Of a stretch of 64,000 nucleotides of DNA, positions 8,501 to 51,140 are shown piece after piece (positions within the stretch are counted from its first letter, which is position 1; every line of letters begins with the position of its first letter). This DNA comes from Candidatus Omnitrophota bacterium (GTDB lineage Bacteria > Omnitrophota > Gorgyraeia > Gygaellales > JBFMHM01), in assembly GCA_040753015.1 (NCBI GenBank), contig JBFMHM010000001.1:82731-146730 (forward strand), read 5' to 3'. The notes below the pieces were generated by a model. It was not told the origin of the DNA, did not search any database, and saw only the letters and a program-made list of their open reading frames with translations. The position numbers and the translations under genes were made by a program.

Positions 8501-8940
8501 GCGAAAAAATGGCGATAATTAGGATAGAAGATTTATCGGGAAATGTTGAGGTTTTAGTTTTTCCAAAAACTTTTAATAAGACTCAAAATAATCTTGGCGC
8601 AAATAACATTGTAGTTGCGTCAGGAAAATTAAACCTAAAAGAAGATTCGCCTAAAATAATTGCTGACGATATTGTGTTGTTAGATGATGCCTTTAGGCTG
8701 ATATCGGGAATCAACATTAGAGTAAAAACACTTACCGAAGATACCCTACAAAATATTAAACAAAGGCTTTCGCTGTTTCCGGGAAAAACTCCAGTGAACC
8801 TATTAATTGAAAATAATCACCCAGAAAAAAAATGCGTCCACATCCGCGTTGGACAAAACCTTTATGTAAACCCAAGCGAAGACTTAATTAGCCAGTTAGA
8901 AAGCTTTATTGGCGAAGATCACCTAAGCTTCTCTTTGTAA
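5503..8940 (+). CDS. dnaE: DNA polymerase III alpha subunit
   Basis: 1145 aa. FVHLHVHTQFSLLDGA is the PHP domain. The polymerase core (GPGRGSASGSLVSYLL, ITMPDIDIDF) and a C-terminal OB fold are present. Confidence 0.92.
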   Translation: MGMSFVHLHVHTQFSLLDGACRLKDLFKKAQDFKMPALAITDHGNMFGAIDFYLEAKNFNIKPIIGCEIYIAPGSRFDKKLSASKSGNTREEASYHFILLAKNEAGYKNLMKLVSIGYLEGFYYKPRIDKEILSAHSNGLIGLSACLKGEIPQALQFDNFNDALKIADDFSAIFGKGNFYLELQENGIREQKKVNIDLLKIAKKLSLPVVATNDVHYITRETAKAHDALLCVQTQNVLSNSNRLKLETDEFYFKSAEEMKNLFKDYPQEIISNTLTIAESCNLKLDFSETHLPKFEQDQFSSNEEFLKDLCLKGLTKRFDKITPQIKERLDYELEVINKTGFISYFLIVWDFVNYAKNNNISVGPGRGSASGSLVSYLLNITDIDPLKYGLLFERFLNPQRITMPDIDIDFCYERRQEVINYVTKKYGQENVAQIITFGTMQARAAVRDVGRVMGLSYADVDKIAKMIPPDPGIDLSTAIKSEPELENIQKNDPNINQLIETALALEGLNRHASVHAAGVLIADKALTEYTPLYKTSDDQITTGYSMGILEKIGLLKVDFLGLRTLTVIEKTLKIIEQTKNKKISINDIPLDDKKTFRLLASAETYGVFQLESSGMRDLLKKLNPDRFEDLISLLALYRPGPIGSGMLDDFMQRKHGKIPIKYDHPKLEPILKDTYGIIIFQEQVMRIASELAGFSLAQADLLRRAMGKKIPEVMEKQRIDFVKGCHKNTIGEKLANKIFDLMEYFSGYGFNLSHSAAYAMISYRTAYLKANYLVEFMAALLNSEKNNTDKIVEYVSEASRLNINVLPPDINESFSDFTVINEKTIRFGLLAIKNTGEGAIESIVKARDDGKFKTLEDLSQRIDLRLANKKVLESLIKSGACDSFGLYRAQLMMILEEVLAKSQRLNRERDKGQLSLFDFNIDVVKTPNVQEWPSQQLLAFEKDFLGFYISDHPLNSYSSTIKKFSTPQINKLPQLKDGQDIRIIGLISKIKHTLTRAKSEKMAIIRIEDLSGNVEVLVFPKTFNKTQNNLGANNIVVASGKLNLKEDSPKIIADDIVLLDDAFRLISGINIRVKTLTEDTLQNIKQRLSLFPGKTPVNLLIENNHPEKKCVHIRVGQNLYVNPSEDLISQLESFIGEDHLSFSL

Positions 8941-8978
8941 GTTCTTGTGCTATAATAAAAAATAAAAAAGGAGGGTAT

Positions 8979-9089
8979 ATGAGTTGGGGATTGTTTGGAC
9001 AAATCGTATTACTAATAATTATATTTTCTTTTGTAAAAACATTTGTGAAATGTATGCACGACACCTGCTGCATAAAGTGTAAAAAATAA
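8979..9089 (+). CDS. putative small Cys-rich membrane peptide (36 aa)
   Basis: Hand-translated as MSWGLFGQIVLLIIIFSFVKTFVKCMHDTCCIKCKK. AGGAGG sits 5 nt upstream and a TATAAT at 8951. It is not in the ORF track (under 60 aa). Confidence 0.3.
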   Translation: MSWGLFGQIVLLIIIFSFVKTFVKCMHDTCCIKCKK

Positions 9090-9091
9090 TT

Positions 9092-9361
9092 ATGCAAATA
9101 AAAATTGAGCAATTAAGCGAAGAAGAATTGAAAAAGCGAAAAGTTCCATCTTGGCCGATATGGGAAAAAGAAATATCCACTTTTGACTGGCATTATGACG
9201 ATATGGAAGAGTGTTTATTTCTTGAAGGCGATGTTACCGTTACAACGAAAGACGGCAAAAGCGTAAATATTAAGCCCGGCGACTTCGTCACCTTCCCAAA
9301 AGGTTTATCTTGTAGTTGGAATATAAAGAAACCAGTTAAGAAATATTATAGGCTGTTCTGA
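9092..9361 (+). CDS. cupin-fold protein (DUF861/cupin_3 family)
   Basis: WPIWEKEISTFDWHYDDMEECLFLEGDVTVTTKDGKSVNIKPGDFVTFPKGLSCSWNIKKPVKKYY matches the cupin_3 pattern end to end. Confidence 0.7.
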   Translation: MQIKIEQLSEEELKKRKVPSWPIWEKEISTFDWHYDDMEECLFLEGDVTVTTKDGKSVNIKPGDFVTFPKGLSCSWNIKKPVKKYYRLF

Positions 9362-9375
9362 AGCCATGCCTAACT

Positions 9376-9539
9376 CTGCTAAGAAAAATATCGAGTGTTT
9401 TATAGCGAGAAATTTTTTTAGCGTTTAGAGTTTGGCATAGTTATTTTGAATTTGCAGTTGTACTTGTAGGGACAGGCCTGTGTGCCTGTCCGAAATAATG
9501 AGATTGAAGAATAATTAAGTTGTGTGTGCCCCCGGAATT
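9376..9539 (+). repeat. 165-nt repeated leader element, copy 1, with conserved hairpin GTAGGGACAGGCCTGTGTGCCTGTCC (9466-9491) and 3' CCGGAATT site
   Basis: About 80% identical to 10175-10340. The 5' and 3' thirds are near-identical and the centre has indels. It lies directly upstream of the CDS at 9573. Confidence 0.7.
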
Positions 9540-9548
9540 TCTTATAAT
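9529..9548 (+). promoter_or_regulatory. CCCCCGGAATT operator-like site abutting a -10 TATAAT
   Basis: CCGGAATT at 9532-9539 and TATAAT at 9543-9548. AGGAGG and the ATG follow at 9573. Confidence 0.45.
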
Positions 9549-9572
9549 CTAGTATTATCTGTAAGGAGGAAG

Positions 9573-9998
9573 ATGAGAAAACTAATTAAGCATAAGAATG
9601 TTTCAGAATCAACAGATTTAGCAAGTTTAGTTAATAAAATATATGAACAGTTGGTTAGTCTGGAGAAAAAAGTTGATACATTAATCAATCGGTCTTCAGT
9701 TAGCACCCATAATAGCGGTGATCGTTTCCAAAGGGCTAATTCGCATTTTAGGCGCTCTGATCGCTTTCAAGGGGCAAGATATGAGGAAAGACCCAGAGAA
9801 ATAAATTTTACGCAGGCGGTTTGCGCAGAATGTGGTAAAGAATGCGAAGTTCCTTTTAGGCCCACAGGAGATCGTCCAGTATATTGTAGCGATTGTTTTT
9901 CGGTGCGTAATGATTCTGGATCATCTAGAGGAAAATTCAATAATAATAAGAGAAAGGGTTCATTTTTCCGAAGAAGAAAAGAGCACTCTCGATCTTAA
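9573..9998 (+). CDS. zinc-ribbon protein, Arg/Lys-rich (CxxC-x17-CxxC)
   Basis: The start is revised to MRKLIKHKN, with AGGAGG 6 nt upstream; the track ORF begins at 9522. The sequence contains CAECGKECEVPFRPTGDRPVYCSDCF, RFQ/RR repeats and a basic tail. Confidence 0.5.
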   Translation: MRKLIKHKNVSESTDLASLVNKIYEQLVSLEKKVDTLINRSSVSTHNSGDRFQRANSHFRRSDRFQGARYEERPREINFTQAVCAECGKECEVPFRPTGDRPVYCSDCFSVRNDSGSSRGKFNNNKRKGSFFRRRKEHSRS

Positions 9999-10174
9999 TG
10001 TTGCTTGCTTGCTCGCCTCGCGGCGAAGCCGAGGGCCGGCAGGGAGGCAGGTGTTCCCGGAATTCTAGGATTAATAACCCGATGGCAAAGATAAAGCTAG
10101 ATTTGCACAACAAAAACTCCGGCCGAATCTTTGTGCATTTTAGGTTTTAGGCCGTTTTTCGGCCATGTCGAATT

Positions 10175-10340
10175 CTGCTAAGAAAAATATCGAGTGTTTT
10201 ATAGCGAGAAATTTTTCTAGCGATTAGAGTTCGACGAAGTTGCATTTGTAGGGACAGGCCTGTGTGCCTGTCCGAAATGATTGATATTCGGATGATGGAA
10301 TAATTAAGTGTCGTGTCCCCGGAATTAAATTTCCGGAATT
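10175..10340 (+). repeat. 165-nt repeated leader element, copy 2 (hairpin at 10248-10273; inverted CCGGAA-6-TTCCGG at 10319-10336)
   Basis: See copy 1. Tandem TTACCAAACAAA(R)TATAAT modules follow at 10352-10371 and 10409-10427, then AGGAGG and the ATG at 10460. Confidence 0.7.
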
Positions 10341-10459
10341 TCAAAAACCTATTACCAAACAAAAATATAATATCTAATAAATTGTTAGGTAAAAATAACT
10401 TGATTTTTTTACCAAACAAAGTATAATTTTATTAGTTAAATGTTTGGTAAGGAGGATGT

Positions 10460-10774
10460 ATGAGCGTTATTAAGGGTGTATTAAAAGAAGAGCTACAAAA
10501 TTCTCTCGATATGCTGAAGGGATATAAAAGAGAGATAGTCAAAATAAAAGGCTGTCTTGTTAGGAAAAAAGTTGGTAAACATTATTATTACTACTTGGCT
10601 AAGAGGCAAGGAAAAAAGATAAAGTTTACATACAAAGGTCCGATTTCAGAAGAGATAAGAAAAGCCTATACTCAGCAAAGAAAAATGCTTAATAAATATA
10701 AGAAATTATTACTACAGGTTAAAAATCAAATTAAATTTATAAGGAGAGCTCTGCGTGGAAAAGAAACAGCGTGA
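10460..10774 (+). CDS. hypothetical small basic protein, partner of the downstream nucleotidyltransferase-fold protein
   Basis: 104 aa, Lys-rich. It overlaps the next ORF by 20 nt, so the two are translationally coupled. Confidence 0.5.
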   Translation: MSVIKGVLKEELQNSLDMLKGYKREIVKIKGCLVRKKVGKHYYYYLAKRQGKKIKFTYKGPISEEIRKAYTQQRKMLNKYKKLLLQVKNQIKFIRRALRGKETA

Positions 10775-11453
10775 GTTATGCCTTGAAATATTAAGACGGT
10801 TTAATGAATCTGGTATACTTGAAAATTTTATTTTAATCGGTAGCTGGGCTGCATATTTCTATAATGAATATTTTTCAGGTACTTCGTATTTAGATCGCCT
10901 CGCTGTAAAAACCAGAGACATTGATTTCTTAATTGATAATCCTCGAAAAATAAAAAGAGATGTTAATATACCCAAGCTCCTTGAAGATTTAGGTTTTATT
11001 GTTATATATAAAGGCAGCGGAGGATATATAAAATTAGATCACCCTGATTTGCTACTTGAATTTTTATCTCCTGAATTAGGTAAAGGCACAGGCAAGCCAA
11101 TACCTCTACCAAAATTAGGAGTAAATGCTGTTGCGCTAAGATTCTTAAGTTTTTTATCTAGTAATACAATTGAAGTTAAGGTTGAGAATTTCTATGTAAC
11201 TTTACCTCACCCAGCTAATTTTGCCTTACATAAATTGATTATTTTCCAACGTAGGTTTAAAGAAGAAAAAGCGCTAAAAGATAGAAATACTGCGATTGAA
11301 GTTTTAAAAGCTTTGATTAATAAGGGCGAGTCAGATACAATTAAGCAAGTTTTTGATTCAATGCCTAAAAAATGGCAAAACAAAATAGTTAATGGCTTAG
11401 ATAAAAACCAAGATAAGAATATATTAATCATATTGCAAAAAATAATTAAATAA
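10755..11453 (+). CDS. putative minimal nucleotidyltransferase-fold protein
   Basis: LIGSWAAYFY...TRDIDFLID fits the pol-beta superfamily G[SG]x(n)DhD pattern. The assignment is tentative. Confidence 0.4.
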   Translation: MEKKQRELCLEILRRFNESGILENFILIGSWAAYFYNEYFSGTSYLDRLAVKTRDIDFLIDNPRKIKRDVNIPKLLEDLGFIVIYKGSGGYIKLDHPDLLLEFLSPELGKGTGKPIPLPKLGVNAVALRFLSFLSSNTIEVKVENFYVTLPHPANFALHKLIIFQRRFKEEKALKDRNTAIEVLKALINKGESDTIKQVFDSMPKKWQNKIVNGLDKNQDKNILIILQKIIK

Positions 11454-11463
11454 GAGTAAGTCA

Positions 11464-11547
11464 TGCAAATAAAAATTGAAAGATTAAGTTATAATGTGTT
11501 GATAGAATTAATGTTACGCAGAAACGACACTGGATTTCTATGCTAGA
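11464..11547 (+). pseudogene. truncated duplicate of the cupin gene 5' end
   Basis: atgcaaataaaaattga is a 17/17 match to 9092-9108, and attaag follows after 3 mismatches. It translates MQIKIERLSYN... and stops after 27 codons. Confidence 0.4.
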
Positions 11548-11678
11548 GAAAAAAGTGTTGCGTCAATTGCCAGGTAAAGGCCGCAGTGTGCATTACGATT
11601 TAGCCTGGCCAGAGAATAAATCGTGAAGAGGTAAAATTTAGTGTTAAAATAAAGGGGAAATAATTATAGTAGCTGTCC

Positions 11679-11731
11679 CCGGAATTTCCCGGAATTCCTA
11701 GATTGCTGCTTAGTTTTTCAAATGGTATAAT
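11679..11731 (+). promoter_or_regulatory. partial third copy of the leader-element 3' end (tandem CCGGAATT, GGAATTCC) plus extended -10 TGGTATAAT
   Basis: aataattatagtagctgtccccggaatttcccggaattcc parallels the 3' ends of copies 1 and 2. TGGTATAAT lies at 11723-11731, upstream of 11790. Confidence 0.5.
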
Positions 11732-11789
11732 AAAGAAAATTTGCTAGGCTTAATGAAAACAAAAACTTTCTTAAATTGGAAATAAAGTT

Positions 11790-12401
11790 ATGAGTGAAAT
11801 TATTTATATTCTCACAAATGAAGCGATGAGTGGCTATGTAAAAATCGGTAAAACAACCAATAATCTTGAGCAACGGGTTAGAGAATTGAGCGCGTCAACA
11901 AGCGTTCCATTGCCTTTTACGGTTTTTTATGCTTGCACAGTAAAAAATGCTCAATTTGTTGAACATCAACTTCACGATGCTTTTGATGATAATCGTGTCA
12001 ACCCAAAAAGAGAATTTTTCCGAGTCGCTCCAGAACGAGTAGTCGCGGCTCTAAAGCTTGCAGAAATTGAGAATATAACACCAAAGAAAGACTTTGTTGA
12101 ATCTAAGGAAGATCAGGCGGCATTAAATGCCGCAAGAAAAATAAGAAGTAGATTTAACTTCGAAATGGTAAAAATTCCCGTAGGAGCTGAATTGTATTTT
12201 AGTCGCGATGAAAGCAGTAAGGCAAAAGTCATTGATACGCGTACCGCCAATTCTATTGAATTTAACGGAAAAAAAACAAGTCTATCTCGTTCAGCCCAAA
12301 AAATACTCGGCTATCAATACGGTGTATCAGGCACAGATTACTGGATGTATGAAGGCGAGACGCTCGATGAGCGCCGCAGGAGATTTGAAAGCGGAAAATG
12401 A
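11790..12401 (+). CDS. T5orf172/MUG113 (GIY-YIG-like) domain protein
   Basis: The N-terminus IIYILTNEAMSGYVKIGKTTNNLEQRVRELS...PLPFTV...EHQLHDAF matches the T5orf172 domain pattern. Confidence 0.6.
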   Translation: MSEIIYILTNEAMSGYVKIGKTTNNLEQRVRELSASTSVPLPFTVFYACTVKNAQFVEHQLHDAFDDNRVNPKREFFRVAPERVVAALKLAEIENITPKKDFVESKEDQAALNAARKIRSRFNFEMVKIPVGAELYFSRDESSKAKVIDTRTANSIEFNGKKTSLSRSAQKILGYQYGVSGTDYWMYEGETLDERRRRFESGK

Positions 12402-12405
12402 TTTT

Positions 12406-13449
12406 ATGAAAACTAAATCTTTAAATAGAAACTTACACAAAGCAAGCCAAGCCAAAAAAGACGAGTTTTATACTCAACTTGCCGATATTGAAAATGAATT
12501 GAAATATTATAAAGATCAATTCCGCGGTAAAGTAGTTTTTTGCAACTGTGATGATCCTAGAGAAAGTAATTTCGTCAAATATTTCAGCATGAATTTTGAG
12601 CATTTAGGGCTAAAAAAATTGATAGCCACACATTATAAAGAAGCAAATTTATTTTCCCAAGAACCGCCTTATAAATTAGAATACACAGGCGATAAAAATG
12701 GTAATCGCACACCTGATCCAAGTGAGTTTATGACTGAGATGATAGGAACGGGCGATTTTCGTAGCGTGGAGTGTATTGAACTACTCAAAGAAGCGGATAT
12801 TGTTATGACTAATCCGCCATTTTCGCTGTTTCGTGAATATGTTGCACAGCTCGTGAAGTACAAAAAAAAGTTTTTGATTATAGGCAATACAAATTCACTA
12901 ACCTATAAAGAGATTTTTAAGCTAATTAAAGACAACAAGCTCCGTACTGGTTACACGAATTTTAATGTAGGAATGTTTTTTATTGTGCCAGACGATTGGG
13001 AGCATTTTCATCATATCGATGAAGATGGCAAGAAAATTGTGCGTGTCTCAACTTCGTGTTGGTTTACGAATCTTGTAGTTGAGAAGCATAAGCAAGATAT
13101 CACTCTTTATAAGAAATATTCACGTAAAGAATATCCAAAGTACTACAATTATGATGCAATTAACGTAGACAAATATACCGACATACCTTGCGACTATGAC
13201 GGTGCGATTGGTGTACCCATTACTTTCCTTGATAAATATAATCCGGAACAATTTGAGGTTATTGGTTTGGGTATATCTAATTCAGGGATAGAAATTGGAG
13301 TTAAACCATATAAAGAGGAACATAAAAAATACAGAAGAGAAGTTCAAAAAAGAGGTGCAGTTGATGGTGATTTATATATGATTAAAAATGGAATTGTTGA
13401 TGTTCCTTACGCTCGAGTTATTATAAAAAACAAGAAGGTGAAAAAATAA
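12406..13449 (+). CDS. N6-adenine DNA methyltransferase (EcoRI-methylase-like family, NPPF motif)
   Basis: The start is revised to MKTKSLN, 4 nt after the upstream stop; the track ORF begins at 12208 in an overlapping frame. The sequence contains DEFYTQ..., CNCDDPRESNFVKYF and DIVMTNPPF (motif IV). Confidence 0.7.
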   Translation: MKTKSLNRNLHKASQAKKDEFYTQLADIENELKYYKDQFRGKVVFCNCDDPRESNFVKYFSMNFEHLGLKKLIATHYKEANLFSQEPPYKLEYTGDKNGNRTPDPSEFMTEMIGTGDFRSVECIELLKEADIVMTNPPFSLFREYVAQLVKYKKKFLIIGNTNSLTYKEIFKLIKDNKLRTGYTNFNVGMFFIVPDDWEHFHHIDEDGKKIVRVSTSCWFTNLVVEKHKQDITLYKKYSRKEYPKYYNYDAINVDKYTDIPCDYDGAIGVPITFLDKYNPEQFEVIGLGISNSGIEIGVKPYKEEHKKYRREVQKRGAVDGDLYMIKNGIVDVPYARVIIKNKKVKK

Positions 13450-13450
13450 T

Positions 13451-14557
13451 ATGAAAATTGAACTACACAAAATTAAAATTCATAGAGTGATAGCGGGCTA
13501 CAAAGATAGCGCAGAAGAAGGCGTAGTGGCTTATGATGGTAAACTTGATATTCGTCCAAAATATCAGCGTGAATTTGTGTACAAGGAAAAACAACGTAAT
13601 GCCGTAATCGAAACCATCAAAAACAGCTTTCCACTGAATGTGATGTATTGGATGATCAGAGAAGATGGTGGCTACGAAATGCTAGATGGCCAACAGCGCA
13701 CTATCAGTATCGGTCAATATGTGAATGGCGATTTTTCACTGAACGACCGGTTTTTTCATAATCTGACCAAAGAAGAGCAAGATAAAATTTTGGATTATGA
13801 ATTGATGATTTACTTTTGCGAAGGCACGGATAAAGAGCGATTAGACTGGTTCACGGTCATCAATACATATGGGGAAAAAGTGAACGAACAAGAAATTCGC
13901 AACGCGGTTTACACGGGGCCATGGCTCTCGGATGCTAAATTAAAGTTTAGCAAATCAAATTGCGCGGCATATCTTTTGGCAAATGACGGTGGGCAATTGG
14001 TAAACGGTTCGCCGATCCGCCAGGAATACTTAGAAACTGCACTTTCTTGGATAAACGATGGCAAAATAGAAGATTATATGGCCAAGCATCAGCATAAAAA
14101 AAATGCTGATGAATTATGGCAATATTTTCAGGATGCTATTGCATGGACAAGAAAGACGTTTACGCATTACCGCAAGGAAATGAGTAGTGTACAATGGGGC
14201 GAATTGTATAACCAATTCAAAGACAAAAAACTCAACGCCAATAAACTCGAAGCTGAGATTAAAGAGCTAATGCAAGACGAAGATGTTACCAAGAAATCAG
14301 GTATTTATCCATATGTTTTAACGCGGCAAGAAAAACATCTCTCAATACGCGCGTTTAATGACAAAATGAAGCGCGAAGCATACGAAAGGCAAAAAGGTAT
14401 TTGCCCACACTGCAAAAGCGAGAACAAGAAAAAGAAATGGGAAATTGAAGAAATGGAGGCCGACCATATTACCCCTTGGCATGAGGGTGGAAAGACAACC
14501 ACAGAAAATTGTCAAATGTTATGCAAGCAATGCAACCGGACTAAGTCTGGAAAATAA
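13451..14557 (+). CDS. DUF262 (ParB/GmrS-like) - HNH fusion endonuclease
   Basis: The N-terminal DUF262 hallmarks are QREFVY, LDGQQRT and DWFTVINTYGEKVNEQEIRNA. The C-terminal canonical HNH is CPHCKSE...ADHITPWHEGGKTTTENCQMLCKQCNRTK. It starts 1 nt after the methyltransferase stop. Confidence 0.7.
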   Translation: MKIELHKIKIHRVIAGYKDSAEEGVVAYDGKLDIRPKYQREFVYKEKQRNAVIETIKNSFPLNVMYWMIREDGGYEMLDGQQRTISIGQYVNGDFSLNDRFFHNLTKEEQDKILDYELMIYFCEGTDKERLDWFTVINTYGEKVNEQEIRNAVYTGPWLSDAKLKFSKSNCAAYLLANDGGQLVNGSPIRQEYLETALSWINDGKIEDYMAKHQHKKNADELWQYFQDAIAWTRKTFTHYRKEMSSVQWGELYNQFKDKKLNANKLEAEIKELMQDEDVTKKSGIYPYVLTRQEKHLSIRAFNDKMKREAYERQKGICPHCKSENKKKKWEIEEMEADHITPWHEGGKTTTENCQMLCKQCNRTKSGK

Positions 14558-14561
14558 AAGC

Positions 14562-15260
14562 ATGAATTCATTTAAAGGCGTTATCTATACGGTTTTGAAA
14601 AAAATTAAAAATTTGATTATTGGATTTTTAAGATGGGTGCATAGAGTAGCAAAATTTCTAAATAAACACGCAAAGATTAGGTGGCCAGAGACCATGATGG
14701 CTGTGGCTAATATAATTCTTGCAATAGTAACTTGGCGTTATGTCGTTCTTACTAAATACATCGTTCAGCAACAAATAAATCAAACTAACCAACAAAAAGA
14801 GCAATTTGAGTTGGTTAATAGAGCTAAGGTGTGGTTTCAAGGCTTATCAGGAGATATACAAAAAGGAAATTTATTATTTATTAATTCTGGCAATTTGCCA
14901 GCAAAATATTGTAAATTTTTATGGAGAATAGTTAAAGTAGATGGTGAACAAGTTTTACAAGAATTTAAGGAACAAAGTAATATAATCAAAATTGATAGCC
15001 TTGATCAAGAAGAGATTTTTTCACTCCCATATTCTTCGAATTTTAGTCTAAAAGATCAGATTGTTTTTCTTGTTGTCGTATGGAAATATAGTGGAAAAGG
15101 AATAGAAGATTCGACCCCAAAAGAAAAAGTTCTACTATGGAATATTGACCAGAAGCCTAATGCAGCATGGGTTATTCCATCTTCTAGTATGGGCTCGAAT
15201 CATGTAAGCACACTGGATGCTATAAAGAAAGAATTAAGATCTGCTTTAGATAAAGAATAA
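14562..15260 (+). CDS. hypothetical membrane-anchored protein
   Basis: The start is revised to MNSFKG, 4 nt after the HNH stop. One TM helix (MMAVANIILAIVTWRYVVL) is followed by a 150-aa soluble domain. Confidence 0.45.
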   Translation: MNSFKGVIYTVLKKIKNLIIGFLRWVHRVAKFLNKHAKIRWPETMMAVANIILAIVTWRYVVLTKYIVQQQINQTNQQKEQFELVNRAKVWFQGLSGDIQKGNLLFINSGNLPAKYCKFLWRIVKVDGEQVLQEFKEQSNIIKIDSLDQEEIFSLPYSSNFSLKDQIVFLVVVWKYSGKGIEDSTPKEKVLLWNIDQKPNAAWVIPSSSMGSNHVSTLDAIKKELRSALDKE

Positions 15261-15350
15261 GATAACAAGCAATAAGTAAAAAAGTAAAATGGGGGCGTTT
15301 CTAATTTTTAAAAAAATAAACGTCCCAATTTTCTAACACCGTTTTATTTT

Positions 15351-16268
15351 ATGTTTGATCAAGTTAATATTCCAGATGAATTTATTACAGAAAAAATTTC
15401 TTGGGAAGAAATAAAGAAGATCTTTGGTAAATTTAGTGATCAATGGATTTTTCGCGGGCAAAGTAATGATAGCATTCCAGAATCTATTCTTTATCGAAAT
15501 GAAAAATGTCTCAATTACGGCTCCGAAGAAGAAAGAGCTATAAACGATTTTAAAAATGAGATTGATAAGTATCCCGGTGTCGAATGTAGCCCGGTAACAA
15601 AAGTTGATTGGTTATGTTTGATGAGGCATTACGGCTATCCTAGTAGAATTCTAGATTGGACGAGTTGTCCGTACATAGCAACTTTTTTCGCATTTAAAGA
15701 AGATAAAATTAATTCTGGAGCACCTGTTGTTTGGGCTGTAAACAAGGATTGGCTAAAATATTGGGCTATTCGTAGAATAAAAACTATAGAAAAATATATA
15801 AATTGCACAGAAACTGATTTAACAACAGATGAATGTTTCAATGATATATTTATATTTAATAATGATTATTTGAATTTTGTATATCCATTTTTACCGAGTA
15901 GTAATATTTCAAAATCAGGTAGAATCTCTAAACAAAAATCAGTATTTTTGTGCCCAGGAAATCCCATTAGGGATTTTATGACTAACCTATGTTGCGAGTT
16001 TAGTTCACAAAATAATATAAACAGAGAAATATCCGATGGTTTGATTAGTCAATTCACAGATGAAAAAAATAAATATATTTATAAATTACGAATTAATATT
16101 GAAGATAAAGATAAAATCATAAATGATCTGAAAAATAAAAATATAACAGAGCACAGTCTATCTTTAAATCCACATTCTCTTGATGAAGCCGGTAAAAAAT
16201 TTAAAGAAATGGCACTAAAAAGAGACGAATATTGGCGTAATTGGCTATCAGAAGAAATAAATATATGA
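15351..16268 (+). CDS. FRG-domain protein
   Basis: WIFRGQSNDSIPESILYR...DWLCLMRHYGYPSRILDWTSCPYIATFFAF contains the FRG-domain signature motifs. Confidence 0.6.
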   Translation: MFDQVNIPDEFITEKISWEEIKKIFGKFSDQWIFRGQSNDSIPESILYRNEKCLNYGSEEERAINDFKNEIDKYPGVECSPVTKVDWLCLMRHYGYPSRILDWTSCPYIATFFAFKEDKINSGAPVVWAVNKDWLKYWAIRRIKTIEKYINCTETDLTTDECFNDIFIFNNDYLNFVYPFLPSSNISKSGRISKQKSVFLCPGNPIRDFMTNLCCEFSSQNNINREISDGLISQFTDEKNKYIYKLRINIEDKDKIINDLKNKNITEHSLSLNPHSLDEAGKKFKEMALKRDEYWRNWLSEEINI

Positions 16269-16284
16269 GAGAGGCGGGAGACTG

Positions 16285-17037
16285 ATGACCCAATATTATA
16301 ACTCAAAACGAAAATATAATTTGTATACGCCAAACGGCGCGGAGGCGTATAAACTTAGCCGCTCGCAAATTGAGCTTTACATAAATTGCCCAAGATGTTT
16401 TTATCTCGATAGAAAACTTGGTGTGGGAAGACCGCCGGGGTTTCCTTTTGCCTTAAATAGCGCAGTCGATATCCTTCTTAAAAAAGAATTTGACCTATTG
16501 CGGGCAAACGGCGAGGCTCACCCGTTAATGAAAAAATATAAAGTAGATGCAATTCCTGCAAAACACCCTGACCTTGAAGATTGGCGAAATAATCGAAAGG
16601 GAGTGCAATATTTGCATAAGCCGACTAATTTTCTTATTACTGGCGCAATTGACGACTTATGGGAAAACTCCGCTAAAGAATTTATCGTTGTGGATTATAA
16701 GTCTACTGCGAAAGCAGAAGAAATTGTTGAGCTTAAAGAAGACTGGCAAGATTCATATAAACGCCAAATGGAAATATATCAATGGCTTATTCGTCAAAAT
16801 GGGCATAAAGTATCCAACACAGGTTATTTTGTATATTGCAACGGGAAAATAGGCCAAGATAAGTTTGACGGAAAACTTGAATTTGATATTGCGCTAATTG
16901 CACACGTAGGCAAGGACGATTGGATAGAAGGCGTTATTAAGAATATCCACTGCTGCTTGTCTAAAGACGAAATACCGCCTGCTGATAAAAACTGCGACTA
17001 TTGTGCTTATCGTGAATCAGCCAATATGGTTCGTTAA
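16285..17037 (+). CDS. PD-(D/E)XK nuclease, Cas4/RecB-like, with Cys clusters
   Basis: The N-terminus has CPRC and the centre has GAIDDL...VVDYKST (D..D/E.K). The C-terminus carries HCC...CDYC, a possible 4Fe-4S site as in Cas4. Confidence 0.55.
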   Translation: MTQYYNSKRKYNLYTPNGAEAYKLSRSQIELYINCPRCFYLDRKLGVGRPPGFPFALNSAVDILLKKEFDLLRANGEAHPLMKKYKVDAIPAKHPDLEDWRNNRKGVQYLHKPTNFLITGAIDDLWENSAKEFIVVDYKSTAKAEEIVELKEDWQDSYKRQMEIYQWLIRQNGHKVSNTGYFVYCNGKIGQDKFDGKLEFDIALIAHVGKDDWIEGVIKNIHCCLSKDEIPPADKNCDYCAYRESANMVR

Positions 17038-17045
17038 AAGCGATA

Positions 17046-17525
17046 TTGCAAATGAATAAAATCAAAAAATATTTATGTTGGTTGGGTGGTGGCATAGCCA
17101 CTGTTCTTTGGTATATCTTTGCCGAAGGATGGCTTATTTTAATGGTTGACTTATTCGGGTTTTTTGGTTCAACGATAATCGTAACATTAGTTACGGTTAT
17201 TTTATCATGGCTTATTATCTATGCATCTAAAAACTCTAGTAAACTTGATCGCCTGCAGAATTGGTTAGTAGGCAAAGAAGGCGACCTATCTAAAAAAGCG
17301 CAAGCAGCAATGAAAAGCGGTAAGATATTAGTTGTAGCTAATACGGCAATTTTTTTAGGGCCAATGGTTGCTACATTTTTGATGCTTATGATGGGAATCA
17401 AAGCTAAGAAAGTTTATATTTATTCTATTTTTTGTGCTTTACTATGCGCAATTGTCTGGTGCGGGCTTTACTCGGGCATATTTTGGGAAATTCATAAAAT
17501 ATTTCACAAACCACCAATTACATAA
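17046..17525 (+). CDS. hypothetical small membrane protein (3-4 TM helices)
   Basis: 159 aa. It starts 8 nt after the upstream stop and is hydrophobic throughout. Confidence 0.5.
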   Translation: MQMNKIKKYLCWLGGGIATVLWYIFAEGWLILMVDLFGFFGSTIIVTLVTVILSWLIIYASKNSSKLDRLQNWLVGKEGDLSKKAQAAMKSGKILVVANTAIFLGPMVATFLMLMMGIKAKKVYIYSIFCALLCAIVWCGLYSGIFWEIHKIFHKPPIT

Positions 17526-17527
17526 AA

Positions 17528-17683
17528 ATGCAAACCATTACTGCAAAAGAAATGAGAAAGTTAGATGCTTTGGCGACAAGCCGATACGGAATTCCCAGCT
17601 TGATTCTGATGGAAAATGCGGGAAGATCAGCCAAAGAAGAAGCCTTAAAGATGCTACCAAAAAATGCGCCAAGAAAACAGTAA
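17528..17683 (+). pseudogene. truncated N-terminal fragment of NAD(P)H-hydrate epimerase (nnr/yjeF_N)
   Basis: MQTITAKEMRKLDALATSRYGIPSLILMENAGRSAKEEALKML matches the YjeF_N start pattern (T..EMR..D..A....GIP...LMENAG). It stops at codon 52, before the GxGNNGGDG motif. Confidence 0.45.
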
Positions 17684-17785
17684 CCTTTGGCTTATTGAAA
17701 AAAGGCTTGATTAAAAAACAAGCAAATAAATTTACCGGTGGGGTAGTAGTTGGAGATATTTCCCTCCCACAAAATTAAAGGGGCT

Positions 17786-18568
17786 ATGAAAACAGTTATA
17801 TTTTATTTTTCCGGGACAGGAAATTGTTTGAAGGTTGCGCAGGATATTGCCGCAGGACTTAAGGATACCGAAATTATCGCTATTCCTAAAGTAATCGATG
17901 AAAGCGAAATTTCTACCAAGGCAAATAATGTCGGAATAATTTATCCTGTTTACATGTTCGGAATGCCTTTAATTCTTAGCCGGTTTATAAAAAAACTTAA
18001 ATTTAATAGTGCTCAATATATTTTTAGCGTGGCAACATACGGCGGAATGATGGGAAGCACGCTTATACAAACAAAACGAGAACTCAAAAAACAGGGGATA
18101 AAATTATCCGCGGGATTTGGCATAAAGATGCCGGGAAATTATACGCCGCTTTACGGAGCATTGCCTTTAGATAAACAAGAAAAAATGTTCGCGAAAGAAA
18201 ATGAGAAGATTAAGCTTATTTGCGAAATCGTGAAAGCATCTAAAGAAGCACCTATAGAAAAAGGTTTAATTCTCGAAAATCTGTTACTAAGCGGTATTAT
18301 TTACAACGTTTGTTCGCCACAGATACCCAGCATGGATAAATCTTTCTGGGTAAATGATAAATGTAACAGCTGTGGCATCTGCCAAAAAGTTTGCCCGGTG
18401 AAGAATATTAAAATTGTAGACGCAAAGCCAGCGTGGCTAGGTAAATGCGAGCAATGTATGGCATGTTTACAGTGGTGCCCCAAAGAAGCAATCCAATACG
18501 GCAAAAGGACAATCGGACGCAAACGCTATCATCATCCGCAAATATCTCTAGACGATATTATTTTTTAA
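17786..18568 (+). CDS. EFR1-family ferrodoxin (flavodoxin-like domain plus 2x[4Fe-4S])
   Basis: The start is revised to MKTVIFYFSGTGNCLKVAQ; the track ORF begins at 17750. Two cysteine clusters are present: CNSCGICQKVCP and CEQCMACLQWCP. Confidence 0.6.
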   Translation: MKTVIFYFSGTGNCLKVAQDIAAGLKDTEIIAIPKVIDESEISTKANNVGIIYPVYMFGMPLILSRFIKKLKFNSAQYIFSVATYGGMMGSTLIQTKRELKKQGIKLSAGFGIKMPGNYTPLYGALPLDKQEKMFAKENEKIKLICEIVKASKEAPIEKGLILENLLLSGIIYNVCSPQIPSMDKSFWVNDKCNSCGICQKVCPVKNIKIVDAKPAWLGKCEQCMACLQWCPKEAIQYGKRTIGRKRYHHPQISLDDIIF

Positions 18569-19738: not shown

Positions 19739-19761
19739 ACTATAAAGATTACGAGGTATAT

Positions 19762-20244: not shown

Positions 20245-20246
20245 TA

Positions 20247-21458: not shown

Positions 21459-21481
21459 AAGTGTTATAATAGCACAATAAT

Positions 21482-21949: not shown

Positions 21950-21967
21950 CTAAAAAACAGATTTATC

Positions 21968-21996
21968 TTGACTTCGTAACCTTTTGATGATACAGT
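21968..21996 (+). promoter_or_regulatory. sigma-70-like promoter for hup (TTGACT, 17 nt, TACAGT)
   Basis: TTGACT tcgtaaccttttgatga TACAGT is followed by an 84-nt leader to the hup ATG. Confidence 0.4.
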
Positions 21997-22353: not shown

Positions 22354-22371
22354 TCCCTTCTTAGTAAATTA

Positions 22372-45730: not shown

Positions 45731-46033
45731 TTAAGTAATAATAGCAATTTGAATTAGTGATAAATCAATACCACCTGTAGGCTCTACTGAAGCCATTTTG
45801 GTACCAGATTGACCTGGATTTGGTAAGGCTTTTTGGGCTTGATTGGCTATAATTTCTAGTGCTTCTTGACCGCTAGGATTACCCGCAACCAACTGCGCAG
45901 TATCCGGCTTAACCCCGGCTTTAAGAAGTTTGGTTATAGCTAGATTCGTAAACATATTAATAAATTGTTTTATATCCTTTCCTAGCACAAGTATCTGCCT
46001 GGTCAGGAGCGCCGGGGGTGACGTGCCAGTCAC
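45731..46033 (-). CDS. hypothetical ORF overlapping the 3' end of the giant gene (possibly a frameshifted continuation)
   Basis: 100-aa ORF that overlaps 45957-51140 by 77 nt in another frame. No motif is recognised. Confidence 0.2.
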   Translation of the reverse strand: MTGTSPPALLTRQILVLGKDIKQFINMFTNLAITKLLKAGVKPDTAQLVAGNPSGQEALEIIANQAQKALPNPGQSGTKMASVEPTGGIDLSLIQIAIIT

Positions 46034-49000
46034 GACCCTCTTTACCTCTGTTAAAGAATTGTTGAGTTAGGCGGATGATTTGATAGTGATCTAGGTCTGT
46101 ATTTTCAAGTAATTCGTGGAGGATATATTCGTCAATTAAGTCATTTGGTAAACCATTCACTCCCTCCCTTTCACTTAAATATTGTATTAGATTAATTGCA
46201 AGAGCACTTTCAGCGCCTAAGAAGTAACGGTTAGGGCTTTCTACTTCGGCGTTAAACCAGTTAAATGGACAAGTTTCAGCTTCAGGCAGACCGAAGGCCT
46301 CGCCAGTTTTTAGTGGCGGGCCGCGTAAGCGATTGAGTAAACCTTGCGCGTCTTGTTGTGACATGCCTGCGTTGATCAATAAAGCTTCTATTTCAGCCCC
46401 TCTGTTATCCAACAACGCCTGTATTCGCCTATGCGCTAAAACAACAACTTCGCGGTTATCTTGTGCTACTTGGCTTGAGTTTGCCTTGATTGCTTCCCTC
46501 TTCCGCGCAAGTTCCTCTTCGCTGTAGCCACGCGATATTTCGCCGGTAGGAGTTTTAGTCCTCGCGTTATTAATATCGCGAATTATTCTCTCTATATCAT
46601 TTCTGACTTCCCTAGAACCTCGATTAAAAGCTGTTTCTAATGCAGGTAATGCTACTTTGCCGATTTTAATAAGGGATTCGATCGCAGAGTCGCGAACAGT
46701 AGGATCTTTCAAACACTCAATTAAAGACTCAACTGCTGGCCGACCGGTTTTAATAAGTGCTTCTCTGGCGTTATAGCGGACAGACCCATCCTCATCCTTC
46801 AAACATTTAATCAAAGGCTCAACTGCACGAGGATCGCCGATTTCGCCAAGGGCTTTGATAGCGGATTGACTGAGCAAATTGTTATCATATCTCAAGCATG
46901 CAATCAGACGCTCGACTGCTGGCCGACCAATTTTAATAAAGGCCTTAACGGCAGCTTGACGAACATTTTTATCCTCATCTCTCAGACACACAATTAGAGG
47001 ATCGACTGCCGGCTGGCCAATTTTAGCAAGGGCCTGGGCAGCTGCGTGGCGGATATCTTCGTTTTCATCTCTTAAGCACGTAATTAACGGTTCGACTATC
47101 AATGGATGACGACTCTCGCCAAGATTACGAATAATAGATTTGCGATCTGTTTCATCATCGGGATTAAGAAAACTGACCTGCCTTGCAACATCTTCTGGCA
47201 TCCCCAAATTACTTAAAAGTGTAATTAACCTACCCGTATCTATCATTAGATTTAGGAGATGAGGCGCATTAACTCTAGTAAAATCCAAATTAGTATGTGA
47301 TAATATATTGATTAAATTTCTACGCCAAGTAGCCCATTGTTCAATTTCTGGATTAAATGAGCGTTTTAATAATTGTAATAAATGTTTGTCCATAAGTTTT
47401 CGAGCTTCATCAGTACTTATCGCAGCTTCGGCATACGCAATTAAATCATTCACAACGTATGCATTACCTCTTTGCGCTAGAATGACAAGGATATCTTCTA
47501 TGTCATCCTTTGCCCGGGAAAGCCGCCATAATCTTTTACACTGTTCCTCTGTAAAATTTTTAGGATGATGTTCTGCTATTTGTCTAAGGCTAGTAGATAT
47601 TTCAGCGCTATATTTTGTAGTTTCTTGTTTATGTAGTCGGATAATTTGTAGTACCTTACGCATAGTATTTTTCGACTCTATTAACTCTAGGTATTCCAAC
47701 ATTACATCAATTGCCTTTAACCTCCCCAACTCAGCAATTGCATCTTTGCGCGCTTGATCTAAGTCAGTGCGTAAAGCAATAAGCACACGAAAGTCTGCTT
47801 TTAGTTTATGCCAATTATCATCAGTAGTTTCGATGATTTGAGCACATCTTTTAACTGCTTGCTCTCTTTGGCCTTTAGTCAAGTCGGCTGCAAGTAACAC
47901 GCCAGTTAGCTGGAATTCAAGCTCTGTGTTATATTCTTGAGGCCGTGTTTTAATAAGCGCCTCATGGAGTTCTCTTGCTTGATCTAGCGCTTCTACTGCC
48001 GGGCCGAGAAGAATACGTTCTGCTAATCTGCGTGAGTCTTGATCATATAGCTGTTGATTATGAACCATAACATCAAGCGTGCCTACTGCTTTAGGCTGGT
48101 TTATTCTAGCTAAGAGCAATGATAAAAATTCAACGCATCTTATTTTATCCGATAAGTCATAACCAGCTACAGCTAATCTAGGCTGGTTTTGGCCTAGTGT
48201 ATTAACAAAAATAGCTATTGCCTGAGGTTCTTGTACGGTTATAAGCTCTACCAAAAGATCAAAAGCAACAATGCCTTTATCTTTGGCAAAGCCTGCTAGT
48301 GCCTTAACAACATCTGCTGGTAGACGGCCAAGCATACATATATCCGAGACTCTTCTTAGTTCTCTTGCGTATATCTGTTGCGGTGAGTCACTATCTGTTG
48401 TTCTTGCTATAGCTGCAGCACTGGCTTGTTGTTTTAATTCTTGCAGCTTATTATAACTTCTACTAAGTTCAGTTTGTATTGCTTCTATGTCATCAATACT
48501 CTTTTGAAAGCTTATAGTTTGTGTTTGGCCTCTAGTTATAGTTCCTTGTTGCCTTATTGTATCTACTAAAACAATAAGCCTAGCTACAGTAGCAAGCCCA
48601 GCAATCTTATCTTCAGTTTTCATATGGGTTCTAATAGCAGCAATGTAAGGCTTGTATCTTCTTGTTTCCATCATATGGGCAAGAACATAACAAGATAATG
48701 GTAGATTAGCAAGGACTTCTTCAGTAAGCATTCCTTTGTATTGAGCAAGGCAAAGCCTAGCCCTTGCAGAGTCTAAAAAACTTAGCCAAGTTATTAGGCT
48801 TACCACATCATCAGAAGTCCTGGCAAAGCTTTTCATAAATACTAAAGTTGCTGTTTCTGTATCTAAGTAAGTGAGTAATTCTAATACAGCTGGTTGTATA
48901 TCTAACTGTCTTGTGAGATTAATTAGCATCTTAACAGCTTGCTCTCTATCACGGTTAGTACTCATAAGCAGCGCTGTTTGGCTAAACGCTTCTTGTCTTT

Positions 49001-51140
49001 GGGAATTAGTAAGACAAGTTGCTTCTTGAAGCAATGTTCTTAGCCTTTGAGCAAGCGGTAGGTTTGTAACAGGCCAGGCTCTATTTCTTAGAGAGAACAT
49101 ATCCATAACTCGTCTGGCTATACCTAATTTTTGCGGTTTTTCTTCATTTTCTGATGCTTGAGCTTCTGGAACAGCTAAAGCAGTTGTTGGTGCTATTACT
49201 TCAACAACATAATCTTCAGATAAAATACCAGCTGCTTGTAATTGTAATTCTGACCGTCTTTCATCTGTTATGGCCTCTGTAACAACAGCTAATCCTGGCG
49301 TAGATAGTTCAGCATTAGTTACAAATATTGGCCTGTTGGCAATATACCTTAAGTTCCAACCAAGCTGGCCAATAAAATAACTAACCCTTTGAGCTGACGT
49401 ACCACTATCTGCTATTCTTGTTTCACTAACGCTTTCTATAGGTAAATGTTCACATAAATAAGTAAATAAATCTTGCTTGAGATTGTCTGTAGTAACGCTT
49501 TCAATAATAACACTAGTCAAATATTCAAAAACTAGCTTAAGATAATCCGCGGAAGGAACATTCAAACTATCAAGCACGCCTCTTGATAAAAGAGCGGTTT
49601 CTTGGCCGACATAATTCAAACCAGCTTCAAGAATTAATCTTTGTTCATAGCTACCACCTCTACTTGCACGAATCCTACGGTCAAAATCTAACAATGTATA
49701 TGCTAAATGCCTACGCTTCTGTTCTGAATAAGCTAGGCCCTTGGATAAGTCTAGGTCTTGAAGAATTGCATTAGATGTTTGAGGAACACCAGCTATTAAA
49801 ATTATGGGATAATGAACCTCATCAGAAACAGCCATATACATCTCACCAGTTTTTAAGAACCTCTCTGCTGCGCCTTTGTAACTACCACTAGCTAAAACTC
49901 TACCTAGGTCTCTTTCTAACCTTTCTTGTCCTAGATCTACTCTTACATTAATACCAGCATCTTGAATATATGTACCCAGACGCATTGATCCATTTGCAGT
50001 TACACCAGGAAAGTTTTTAGGATCAAAACCTACACCCCCACTCACATAACTTCTCCTGATATTCGCCTTTAGCTCTTCATTGTAGTTAGTCTTAGTAAGG
50101 TGGTATTCCCCTTGCTTAACAGAATCTAAATAAGCAGCAAAGATTTGTTCTTTTGTTACAGGCTCTTTGGAGATTAGGCCGTTTAGGTTATTGGTGTTGA
50201 TTATTGAAGAAAAGGCGTTCTTCAGTTCGTCCGTTCGCTGGTTCGTCAGTTCTTCTAACTTTTCGCTTTGACTTTTCCCGCCTGAGGCGGGTCCGCCTTT
50301 GGCGGATACGTTTTCTTTGTACCACTTCGCAAGAATAATTGCATTGTATATTTGTCTTAAAGGCTCATATGATGGATCATGGTTTACTTTATAGGTTAGG
50401 TTAGGAAGTATTAGTTCTTTTAGTTGAGCTTCGCAGTAGGATTGTAACTCTTGGTTGTTATCAAACTCCCCCTTTATCCCCCTCTTTGGTAAAGAGGGGG
50501 TCTGGGGGAGTTGTAGATACTCACTTTCCAGTAACACTTTCAGTGTTGATTTGGTAATTACACAGCTTCCTTTACCGTCTTCGTATACTTCTGCTTTGTC
50601 TGGGACTATCCAGACACGGAAGGTTGTGGGGATAGATACAGTTCGACTGTTCTTCAGTTCGTCAGTTCGTCGGTTAGATAATTGTTTTGCCTTGGCAAAC
50701 ACACGTTCCCAATAGGTAGTTGCTCCAGTAGATAATCCGGGAAATAGGCTAAAGGCTGTGTCTTTCTTAAGCTTTAGGTCTAGGAGTAGTAGATGCTTGC
50801 CCATGTCTGTGTAGGATAGATTAGTTCCTGTGAGCCTGTTAGGTTGGTTTGGGTTAAGGTTAACCCAGAATTCAGAGTCTTGTATGGTTAGAGCGGTTAG
50901 GAAGTAGTTTATGTTGGTTTGTAGATCTTTACGTTGGTCTAGGGAAAGAATGGTGCCTTTGGGGATGTTTAGATTGAATTGGATACCTGTAGGGACAGAC
51001 CCGTGTGTCTGTCCAAATGTTATGCCTAACAATATAGGCGCCTGTAAGGGTGCGGTAACCGTACCCTGAATAAAACCCAAGCCTATTTGGCTAAAAGCTA
51101 GCGTAAAAATTAAAACCACAGAAACTATACGACGTATCAT
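45957..51140 (-). CDS. giant secreted protein (1727 aa) with PBS-lyase-type HEAT repeats
   Basis: Signal peptide MIRRIVSVVLIFTLAFSQ. The long all-alpha body has at least six HEAT-like repeats of the pattern PLI.CL.DED..VR..A..AL.KIG.PAV. Duplicated TDELKN motifs and Gly/Pro-rich in-frame palindrome segments are present. Confidence 0.7.
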   Translation of the reverse strand: MIRRIVSVVLIFTLAFSQIGLGFIQGTVTAPLQAPILLGITFGQTHGSVPTGIQFNLNIPKGTILSLDQRKDLQTNINYFLTALTIQDSEFWVNLNPNQPNRLTGTNLSYTDMGKHLLLLDLKLKKDTAFSLFPGLSTGATTYWERVFAKAKQLSNRRTDELKNSRTVSIPTTFRVWIVPDKAEVYEDGKGSCVITKSTLKVLLESEYLQLPQTPSLPKRGIKGEFDNNQELQSYCEAQLKELILPNLTYKVNHDPSYEPLRQIYNAIILAKWYKENVSAKGGPASGGKSQSEKLEELTNQRTDELKNAFSSIINTNNLNGLISKEPVTKEQIFAAYLDSVKQGEYHLTKTNYNEELKANIRRSYVSGGVGFDPKNFPGVTANGSMRLGTYIQDAGINVRVDLGQERLERDLGRVLASGSYKGAAERFLKTGEMYMAVSDEVHYPIILIAGVPQTSNAILQDLDLSKGLAYSEQKRRHLAYTLLDFDRRIRASRGGSYEQRLILEAGLNYVGQETALLSRGVLDSLNVPSADYLKLVFEYLTSVIIESVTTDNLKQDLFTYLCEHLPIESVSETRIADSGTSAQRVSYFIGQLGWNLRYIANRPIFVTNAELSTPGLAVVTEAITDERRSELQLQAAGILSEDYVVEVIAPTTALAVPEAQASENEEKPQKLGIARRVMDMFSLRNRAWPVTNLPLAQRLRTLLQEATCLTNSQRQEAFSQTALLMSTNRDREQAVKMLINLTRQLDIQPAVLELLTYLDTETATLVFMKSFARTSDDVVSLITWLSFLDSARARLCLAQYKGMLTEEVLANLPLSCYVLAHMMETRRYKPYIAAIRTHMKTEDKIAGLATVARLIVLVDTIRQQGTITRGQTQTISFQKSIDDIEAIQTELSRSYNKLQELKQQASAAAIARTTDSDSPQQIYARELRRVSDICMLGRLPADVVKALAGFAKDKGIVAFDLLVELITVQEPQAIAIFVNTLGQNQPRLAVAGYDLSDKIRCVEFLSLLLARINQPKAVGTLDVMVHNQQLYDQDSRRLAERILLGPAVEALDQARELHEALIKTRPQEYNTELEFQLTGVLLAADLTKGQREQAVKRCAQIIETTDDNWHKLKADFRVLIALRTDLDQARKDAIAELGRLKAIDVMLEYLELIESKNTMRKVLQIIRLHKQETTKYSAEISTSLRQIAEHHPKNFTEEQCKRLWRLSRAKDDIEDILVILAQRGNAYVVNDLIAYAEAAISTDEARKLMDKHLLQLLKRSFNPEIEQWATWRRNLINILSHTNLDFTRVNAPHLLNLMIDTGRLITLLSNLGMPEDVARQVSFLNPDDETDRKSIIRNLGESRHPLIVEPLITCLRDENEDIRHAAAQALAKIGQPAVDPLIVCLRDEDKNVRQAAVKAFIKIGRPAVERLIACLRYDNNLLSQSAIKALGEIGDPRAVEPLIKCLKDEDGSVRYNAREALIKTGRPAVESLIECLKDPTVRDSAIESLIKIGKVALPALETAFNRGSREVRNDIERIIRDINNARTKTPTGEISRGYSEEELARKREAIKANSSQVAQDNREVVVLAHRRIQALLDNRGAEIEALLINAGMSQQDAQGLLNRLRGPPLKTGEAFGLPEAETCPFNWFNAEVESPNRYFLGAESALAINLIQYLSEREGVNGLPNDLIDEYILHELLENTDLDHYQIIRLTQQFFNRGKEGRDWHVTPGAPDQADTCARKGYKTIY

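Follow-up and report, generated by a model that had tools for sequence, protein, structure and literature searches.

What kind of element has been repeated between the genes of this locus, and what might it do there? The window analysed, a 64-kb stretch (G+C ~35%) of a metagenome-assembled genome (MAG) of a Candidatus Omnitrophota bacterium, carries two related intergenic sequences (units A and B) that share a short palindrome, and a variant of that palindrome recurs inside a giant gene (copy C). The original prediction treated them as copies of a 165-nt leader element with a covarying hairpin, which could be a structured RNA leader, a protein-bound DNA palindrome, or a miniature mobile element or one resembling the repetitive extragenic palindromes (REPs). 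We found that the hairpin is well supported as a GTAG-tagged REP-type element rather than a new RNA leader. For the two long copies, we favour, with a probability of about 0.55, a reading in which this palindrome is part of a composite intergenic module, similar to the bacterial interspersed mosaic elements (BIMEs), that has been reiterated locally in a defence island.

The palindrome is present as described in both long copies and, as a variant, at the third site; a degenerate pattern of the hairpin matched the window three times, against 0.00 expected in shuffled sequences.

9466 to 9491, + strand: REP-type hairpin of unit A, with a GTAG head, stem GGACAGGC/GCCTGTCC and loop CTGTGT (arms and loop 9470-9491).
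10248 to 10273, + strand: REP-type hairpin of unit B, same sequence as in unit A (arms and loop 10252-10273).
50989 to 51014, + strand: REP-type hairpin of copy C, GTAG-GGACAGAC-CCGTGT-GTCTGTCC (arms and loop 50993-51014), standing alone and antisense to the giant gene.

The hairpin consists of a perfect 8-bp stem and a 6-nt loop, with DNA folding energies of -8.7 and -7.4 kcal/mol (z-scores of -5.3 and -3.6), the first value of each pair being that of unit A. The GTAG head is unpaired in the folds and lies directly 5′ of the stem in 3/3 copies. Copy C differs from the hairpin of units A and B by two compensatory stem changes and one change in the loop. No other GTAG-headed, GC-rich hairpin was found in the 64-kb window, and a literature search with the exact hairpin sequences returned nothing relevant.

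The same hairpin is widespread outside this genome. In a scan of one genome per species, using the 26-mer with the covarying pair open as R/Y, it was matched in 22 stretches from many phyla, with hosts that include Nitrospira/Nitrospirales, Phormidium, Ignavibacteria, Moraniibacteriota, Saccharibacteria, Oscillospiraceae, Prevotella, Anaerolineaceae, Avibacterium and Geosporobacter. The flanks in these genomes are unrelated to the window and to one another, and many of the matches are accompanied by an inverted partner that ends in CCCTAC, as in a REPIN, an inverted REP doublet (for example, in comparison loci L025, L040 and L042). At the free stem pair, the 24 genome matches were divided equally between G-C (12) and A-T (12), with G-T or A-C in none of them. 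Other stems (GGGACGGC, GGGCGAAC, GGGTTGAC, GGGCGCAC and more) share the head and CYRYGT loops at these loci. Viral contigs were scanned with the pattern GTAGGG-N5-CCTGTGTG-N5-CC, which fixes head and loop and leaves 5 + 5 stem bases free; all five free pairs were complementary in 63 of the 74 matches (chance expectation ~0.1%), and 15 different stem cores were seen. The family, which crosses phyla, is characterised by its GTAGG(G) head, by 8 bp of stem that are free in sequence but complementary, and by a CYGTGT-type loop. Two of its hosts carry it in quantity: in Avibacterium gallinarum, a cultured member of the Pasteurellaceae, the identical 26-mer forms tandem REPIN-like arrays (L040, 6803-7062), and in an Anaerolineaceae MAG (L033) it occurs in dense clusters of mixed stems.

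These data change the meaning of the compensatory substitutions, which had been taken as a sign of selection on the stem. Selection on the stem is real, with complementarity maintained in 24/24 pairs, but the two forms are sub-variants found throughout the family. The pair that distinguishes copy C from units A and B separates two widespread sub-variants and hence is not informative about a local 165-nt RNA.

The anatomy of the hairpin agrees with the GTAG-tagged REP superfamily, whose members have a terminal GTAG, stems of 6-9 bp and sub-families with alternative complementary stem residues, occur as singletons and as head-head or tail-tail dimers downstream of open reading frames (ORFs), include intragenic copies, some of them near N-termini, and form clusters reiterated together with flanking DNA (Di Nocera et al. 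2013, PMC3733652; for REPs and REPINs, see also Bertels and Rainey 2011, PMC3116915, and Nunvar et al.). As in these elements, an unpaired GTAG here precedes a short GC-rich stem with a short loop, stem residues alternate in complementary fashion, and both singles and inverted dimers occur in the other genomes with the 26-mer. In the window, two copies lie in spacers between genes of the same direction, and the third is in frame near an N-terminus. Because of this head, stem and loop anatomy, the complementary sub-variants, the singles and inverted dimers elsewhere and the intragenic copy, we assign the hairpin to the GTAG REP type, so that, of the options first proposed, the REP-like element is borne out for this part of the repeat. 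The resemblance has limits. A classical family is homogeneous in any one genome and largely confined to a species or genus, whereas the head and loop of this family are shared across phyla, with identical 26-mers from the Pasteurellaceae to bacteria of the candidate phyla radiation (CPR), and its stems vary freely.

The two long copies are truly homologous (nhmmer E-values of 2.3e-67 and 3.5e-70), which upholds the claim of a repeat, but their length is ~195 nt rather than 165 nt. Their identity is 77% over 201 gapped columns (BLASTN). They are 799 nt apart. Unit A begins within the last codons of a cupin gene (9092-9361), and unit B lies between a gene for a CxxC zinc-finger protein (9573-9998) and a nucleotidyltransferase toxin-antitoxin-like pair (10460-11453). 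RNAalifold on both units gave three + strand hairpins, H1, H2 and H3, the last being the GTAG hairpin.

9346 to 9541, + strand: unit A, composite intergenic module with H1, H2, REP hairpin and tail.
10145 to 10342, + strand: unit B, second copy of the composite module.
9351 to 9365, + strand: H1 of unit A, GGCT-GTTCTGA-AGCC, overlapping the cupin stop codon TGA (9359-9361).
10150 to 10164, + strand: H1 of unit B, GGCCG-TTTTT-CGGCC.
9366 to 9438, + strand: H2 of unit A, a long imperfect hairpin (~24 pairs) whose 3′ arm carries a 4-nt bulge.
10167 to 10235, + strand: H2 of unit B, the counterpart long hairpin.
9509 to 9539, + strand: tail of unit A, GAATAATTAAG...GTGCCCCCGGAATT, overlapped by a promoter-like site.
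10298 to 10342, + strand: tail of unit B, a doubled CCGGAATT box that folds into a small hairpin.

The similarity between the units is mosaic: one block of 58 nt is 96.6% identical and another of 41 nt is 95% identical, the sequence between blocks being diverged and rich in indels, and a 43-nt core within H2 is identical in both. Wherever the units differ at a paired position of H1 or H2, pairing is kept: H1 has one fully compensatory pair (U-A in unit A, C-G in unit B), H2 has another (C-G to U-A), and two more single changes retain pairing through G-U wobbles, which pair on the + strand only. In RNA folding, H2 of unit A reached -25.1 kcal/mol on the + strand (z-score of -4.1) compared to -23.3 on the - strand, and H2 of unit B -25.5 compared to -17.8 kcal/mol. 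A 20-codon ORF occupies the same position within H2 of both units (9366-9428, MPNSAKKNIECFIARNFFSV; 10165-10227, MSNSAKKNIECFIARNFSSD); as a candidate peptide gene, it was rejected since it shows three non-synonymous changes to one synonymous change and has no Shine-Dalgarno sequence, and it is probably non-coding.

The pairing-preserving changes raise the possibility that the whole unit works as a structured RNA of the + strand, be it a cis-regulatory leader or a small RNA, in which H1, H2 and the REP hairpin form one fold controlling the downstream island genes. The three hairpins with their compensatory and wobble-preserving changes, the stronger + strand fold, the fold z-scores of the whole units (-3.0, and -6.65 for unit B) and the invariant 43-nt core of H2 all argue for it. 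We nevertheless consider this account unlikely, as the searches and the gene context speak against it. A covariance model of H1 and H2 run over 557 kb found only units A and B, and nhmmer found no further unit in the window, none at 80 loci with homologues of the CxxC gene (351 kb) and none near cupin or dnaE relatives; in those relatives, the cupin homologues have another context, with the next gene within 4-14 nt. A 23-mer taken from the core was absent from viral contigs, and a 22-mer taken from it was absent from Joint Genome Institute (JGI) metagenomes. Rfam 15 matched the window solely at a tRNA (36744) and offered nothing for the unit even with E up to 10, the best values over 9250-10500 (2.3-8.7) belonging to eukaryotic small nucleolar RNA and microRNA models; a known Rfam RNA family was rejected, with no match near the gathering score. 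The hairpin turned up across phyla; in the relatives, viral contigs and JGI metagenomes searched the unit did not, and its non-REP part was found only in this window.

The position of the units relative to genes also weakens the case for a leader. Every gene between 1.5 and 44 kb lies on the + strand, so a sequence that precedes one gene equally follows another. A promoter-like TTGTGT-17-TATAAT, read by eye rather than predicted by a tool, spans 9520-9548, overlapping the tail of unit A and ending 25 nt before the start codon of the CxxC gene, and a consensus promoter, TTGATT-16-TATAAT, lies at 10400-10427, past unit B and before the next gene. Should these predicted promoters at or past the 3′ edges of the units be used, the hairpins would belong to the 3′ ends of transcripts from upstream. 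The genes downstream of the two units are, moreover, mutually unrelated, one encoding a zf_Tbcl_2 CxxC protein and the other beginning the nucleotidyltransferase toxin-antitoxin-like pair. In summary, a 5′ leader role is unlikely, and the structured RNA leader that had been offered as one option is not supported by the promoters, the CxxC and cupin homologues or Rfam.

The units stand at the left edge of a defence-type island that lies in the interval between dnaE and hisS (8940-22372, at 8.9-22.3 kb). The DnaE encoded in the window is 100% identical to MEW5757935.1. An Omnitrophota relative (65% DnaE identity) has the gene order guaB-guaA-dnaE-PilZ-HU-hisS-aspS; where it carries PilZ-HU, the interval here is variable and contains the cupin gene, unit A, the CxxC gene, unit B, the NTP_transf_8 pair, T5orf172, an EcoRI-type methylase, GmrSD-HNH, FRG, PD-(D/E)XK, DinB and others. 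Within this left edge, the tail after H3 reads GAATAATTAAG...GTSCCCCGGAATT, and homology between A and B stops directly past the 9-mer CCCGGAATT. This box has five + strand copies within 2.2 kb, compared to 0.43 expected in the whole window, and every one stands ahead of a gene start and where the homology of the repeat copies ends; possible roles are those of a regulator site and of a recombination core.

9531-9539, 10056-10064, 10318-10326, 11678-11686 and 11688-11696, + strand: CCCGGAATT boxes.
10051 to 10064, + strand: isolated GTGTTCCCGGAATT box, in the spacer that separates the CxxC gene from unit B.
11463 to 11488, + strand: 26-nt stub of a cupin 5′ end (MQIKIERLS), E-value of 0.003, score 37 against a shuffle maximum of 30.
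11658 to 11696, + strand: third tail, on its own, AATAATTATAGTAGCTGTCCCCGGAATTTCCCGGAATT, ahead of the T5orf172 gene, with a score of 38 (shuffle maximum 30).

Both the stub and this tail follow the toxin-antitoxin pair. As both are significant against shuffles, the sequence suggests that a third module of cupin gene plus unit existed here and has decayed. A tiny ORF at 10084-10150 was tried as a further cupin remnant and rejected, having no significant DNA similarity.

The decayed third copy with its cupin stub, the presence of merely two full copies 799 nt apart, and the lack of the unit in any relative searched would all fit a neutral relic, in which a segment comprising the cupin gene and its downstream spacer was duplicated and only the REP hairpin is under constraint. 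Neutral decay is not expected, however, to leave so strongly mosaic a divergence or changes in H1 and H2 that preserve pairing, and so this is, in our judgement, also an unlikely explanation.

The boxes would also suit another account, site-specific accretion of cassettes or islets, with the units as junctions that resemble attC sites or att cores, CCCGGAATT as crossover core, and the array of cupin gene, CxxC gene, toxin-antitoxin pair and T5orf172 built by successive integrations. The homology of the copies ends exactly at the box, five boxes in the same orientation each precede a new gene, the region is variable compared to relatives, and the cupin stub and third tail are present. A long imperfect hairpin also follows each small ORF, with toxin-antitoxin and defence cargo nearby, as in attC arrays and clusters of attC sites lacking integron-integrases (CALINs). 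Examined by eye against the attC boxes (R'' RYYYAAC, R' GTTRRRY), H2 of copy A is flanked by GCCTAAC, which fits, and GTTTGGC, with one mismatch, and so resembles R''/R'. In copy B, the R'' consensus is broken (GTCGAAT, two mismatches, with AAC changed to AAT) and the R' box, GTTCGAC, has one mismatch, so that both R' boxes deviate. The bulge of H2 is on the + (top) strand and not the bottom strand, no integrase or IntI is encoded among window ORFs of at least 150 aa, the pattern ends past 11.7 kb, where genes become tightly packed, and the copies are merely 77% identical. Identity with attC or CALIN sites was rejected on the broken boxes of copy B, the bulge on the wrong strand, the occurrence of two sites only (nhmmer, cmsearch) and the missing integrase; the additional REP and tail modules belong to no attC. 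Accretion at such junctions appears improbable to us.

Two further kinds of mobile element were compared with the unit. REP systems and their transposases, the REP-associated tyrosine transposases (RAYTs), are domesticated relatives of IS200/IS605, and the unit recalls the ends of these insertion sequences in having strand-specific DNA hairpins near a conserved tetranucleotide, in direct orientation on either side of a gene. An IS200/IS605 end was rejected, with no tnpA or tnpB present, no match to an IS605-type or other Rfam RNA, and a zinc-finger protein as the product of the flanked gene. A miniature inverted-repeat transposable element (MITE) was likewise rejected: the unit ends, TTATAGGCTG... 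and ...CCCGGAATTTC, are not complementary, no direct repeat flanks them, and the inverted repeats are internal (H1, H2 and H3).

BIMEs of enterobacteria offer a parallel for the long copies, in that they combine REPs with conserved non-REP motifs in a composite intergenic module between co-directional genes. They are thought to act on transcript ends and DNA-binding proteins. Unlike BIMEs, which are alternating inverted REPs in hundreds of copies, the module described here has a single REP together with a 70-nt hairpin and is known in two or three clustered copies. A lineage-specific module of ~195 nt, comprising H1, the long H2, the REP and the CCCGGAATT tail, has been reiterated locally with flanking DNA at the left edge of the island, giving two full copies and a decayed third. 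In the BIME-like reading, it would be co-transcribed at the 3′ end of the upstream gene, and its + strand hairpins, if they act at all, would form a transcript-end structure or an insulator separating neighbouring genes, as REP and BIME elements do. The REP core may spread, or may formerly have spread, as single-stranded DNA (ssDNA) by means of a RAYT-type HUH transposase.

Several observations weigh against this BIME-like reading. The three hairpins in 64 kb are all singletons in one orientation (3/3 on the + strand), without the inverted doublet of REPIN/RAYT systems, whose inverted partners were met in other genomes only. No integrase, transposase or RAYT was found among the window ORFs of at least 150 aa, and a crude scan for HUH and Y motifs, over the window and a set of comparison loci, gave no RAYT candidate. 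No hairpin has a canonical T-run after it in both copies, which leaves classic intrinsic termination unsupported. Finally, the mosaic conservation and the identical 43-nt core of H2 hint at a sequence-specific function beyond that of a 3′ stabiliser.

The third hairpin must be seen apart from the units. It had been described as a third partial copy of the 165-nt element, but the match of copy C to the unit is confined to the hairpin with a few bases on its sides, ~34 nt in all (50984-51017, 85%, BLASTN). It lies in the giant ORF (45957..51140, - strand), which has a signal-peptide-like start behind a GGAGAG ribosome-binding site, and it is in frame, encoding GQTHGSVP(T) at codons 43-51, in agreement with the predicted position of about codons 40-55. 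The doubt that had been raised about the start of this gene is not upheld by its homologues: the first 300 residues have 6908 protein matches, which place the N-terminal 280 residues in a very large conserved family. The N-terminal region is therefore genuinely coding, with a plausible start. The peptide of copy C falls between the conserved motifs LLG(I/L) and TG(I/L)xFNLNIPKG, where length is variable in all homologues. Two paralogues in the same MAG, AB1755_04905 and AB1755_06550, are 90-92% identical and differ exactly at the hairpin, where one has LDLS and the other DLNGRDALQCVS.

On comparison contig L133 (1857-1920 and 2306-2319), a homologue contains an in-frame REPIN-like dimer, GTAGGGGCGCCCCTTGTGGGTGCCC...GGGTACAAGACCCTCCCCTAC, which encodes the peptide VGAPLVGAQNNNKAGTRPSPT in a different variable loop. 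This dimer indicates that tolerance of in-frame palindromes recurs in the loops of the giant protein family. We read copy C as an independent REP insertion that the giant secreted protein tolerates, in frame, in one of its hypervariable loops. Contig L133 ends with the same hairpin as a fold-back copy, which is probably an artefact of assembly at the palindrome. For the giant HEAT-repeat secreted protein, at least three paralogues exist in the MAG of the window (MEW5758786, MEW5759101 and MEW5758508), all truncated at contig ends, which indicates that the gene family breaks the assembly.

Other repeats were noted in and around the giant gene. Short repeats with an 8-nt period, GTTCGTCAGTTCTTCAGTTCG, which encode RTDELKN-like motifs, are present at 50217-50693 in the giant gene and at 55372-55424 in a fragment copy. 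The fragment, at 55317-55471, is a decayed duplicate of the giant gene promoter and ribosome-binding site, fused to ~30 codons from the region of codon 160, and it adjoins an AbiEii/helix-turn-helix (HTH) toxin-antitoxin pair (54003-55219). An insertion of 468 nt around copy C, suggested by repeats D7 and D9, was rejected on the wide conservation of the N-terminal domain and on the fragment at 55317-55471, which explains the apparent insertion. Elsewhere in the window, a 300-nt direct repeat of 97% identity (40094-40393 and 41513-41812), inside neighbouring CARDB-like ORFs (37890-40445 and 40464-41864), points to a recent partial duplication or gene conversion.

Three features of this system are unusual: the 26-mer is identical across phyla with freely varying stems, H1 and H2 are conserved in a strand-specific way, and CCCGGAATT boxes stand where homology ends. 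A bolder proposal can be framed, although we rate its chances as low. The module would be a new cassette-junction element, acting as a structured + strand RNA or as an ssDNA site with CCCGGAATT as its core, that stacks small cassettes into an Omnitrophota defence island; in its wider form, the GTAGGG/CYGTGT family, with identical 26-mers in more than 10 phyla and free-running stems, would be a horizontally spreading hairpin system, unlike the classical, vertically inherited REP/RAYT pairs.

More generally, a compensatory change between REP copies is not proof of a local functional RNA when, as here, both forms are sub-variants of the whole family. The Omnitrophota and some AT-rich CPR genomes join the hosts of GTAG-tagged palindromes, and REP insertions are now recorded in frame within the hypervariable loops of giant secreted proteins that form a very large family; such insertions could mislead gene callers and break assemblies. 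Should the module prove to be a cassette-junction site, it would matter for understanding how uncultured phyla build their defence islands.

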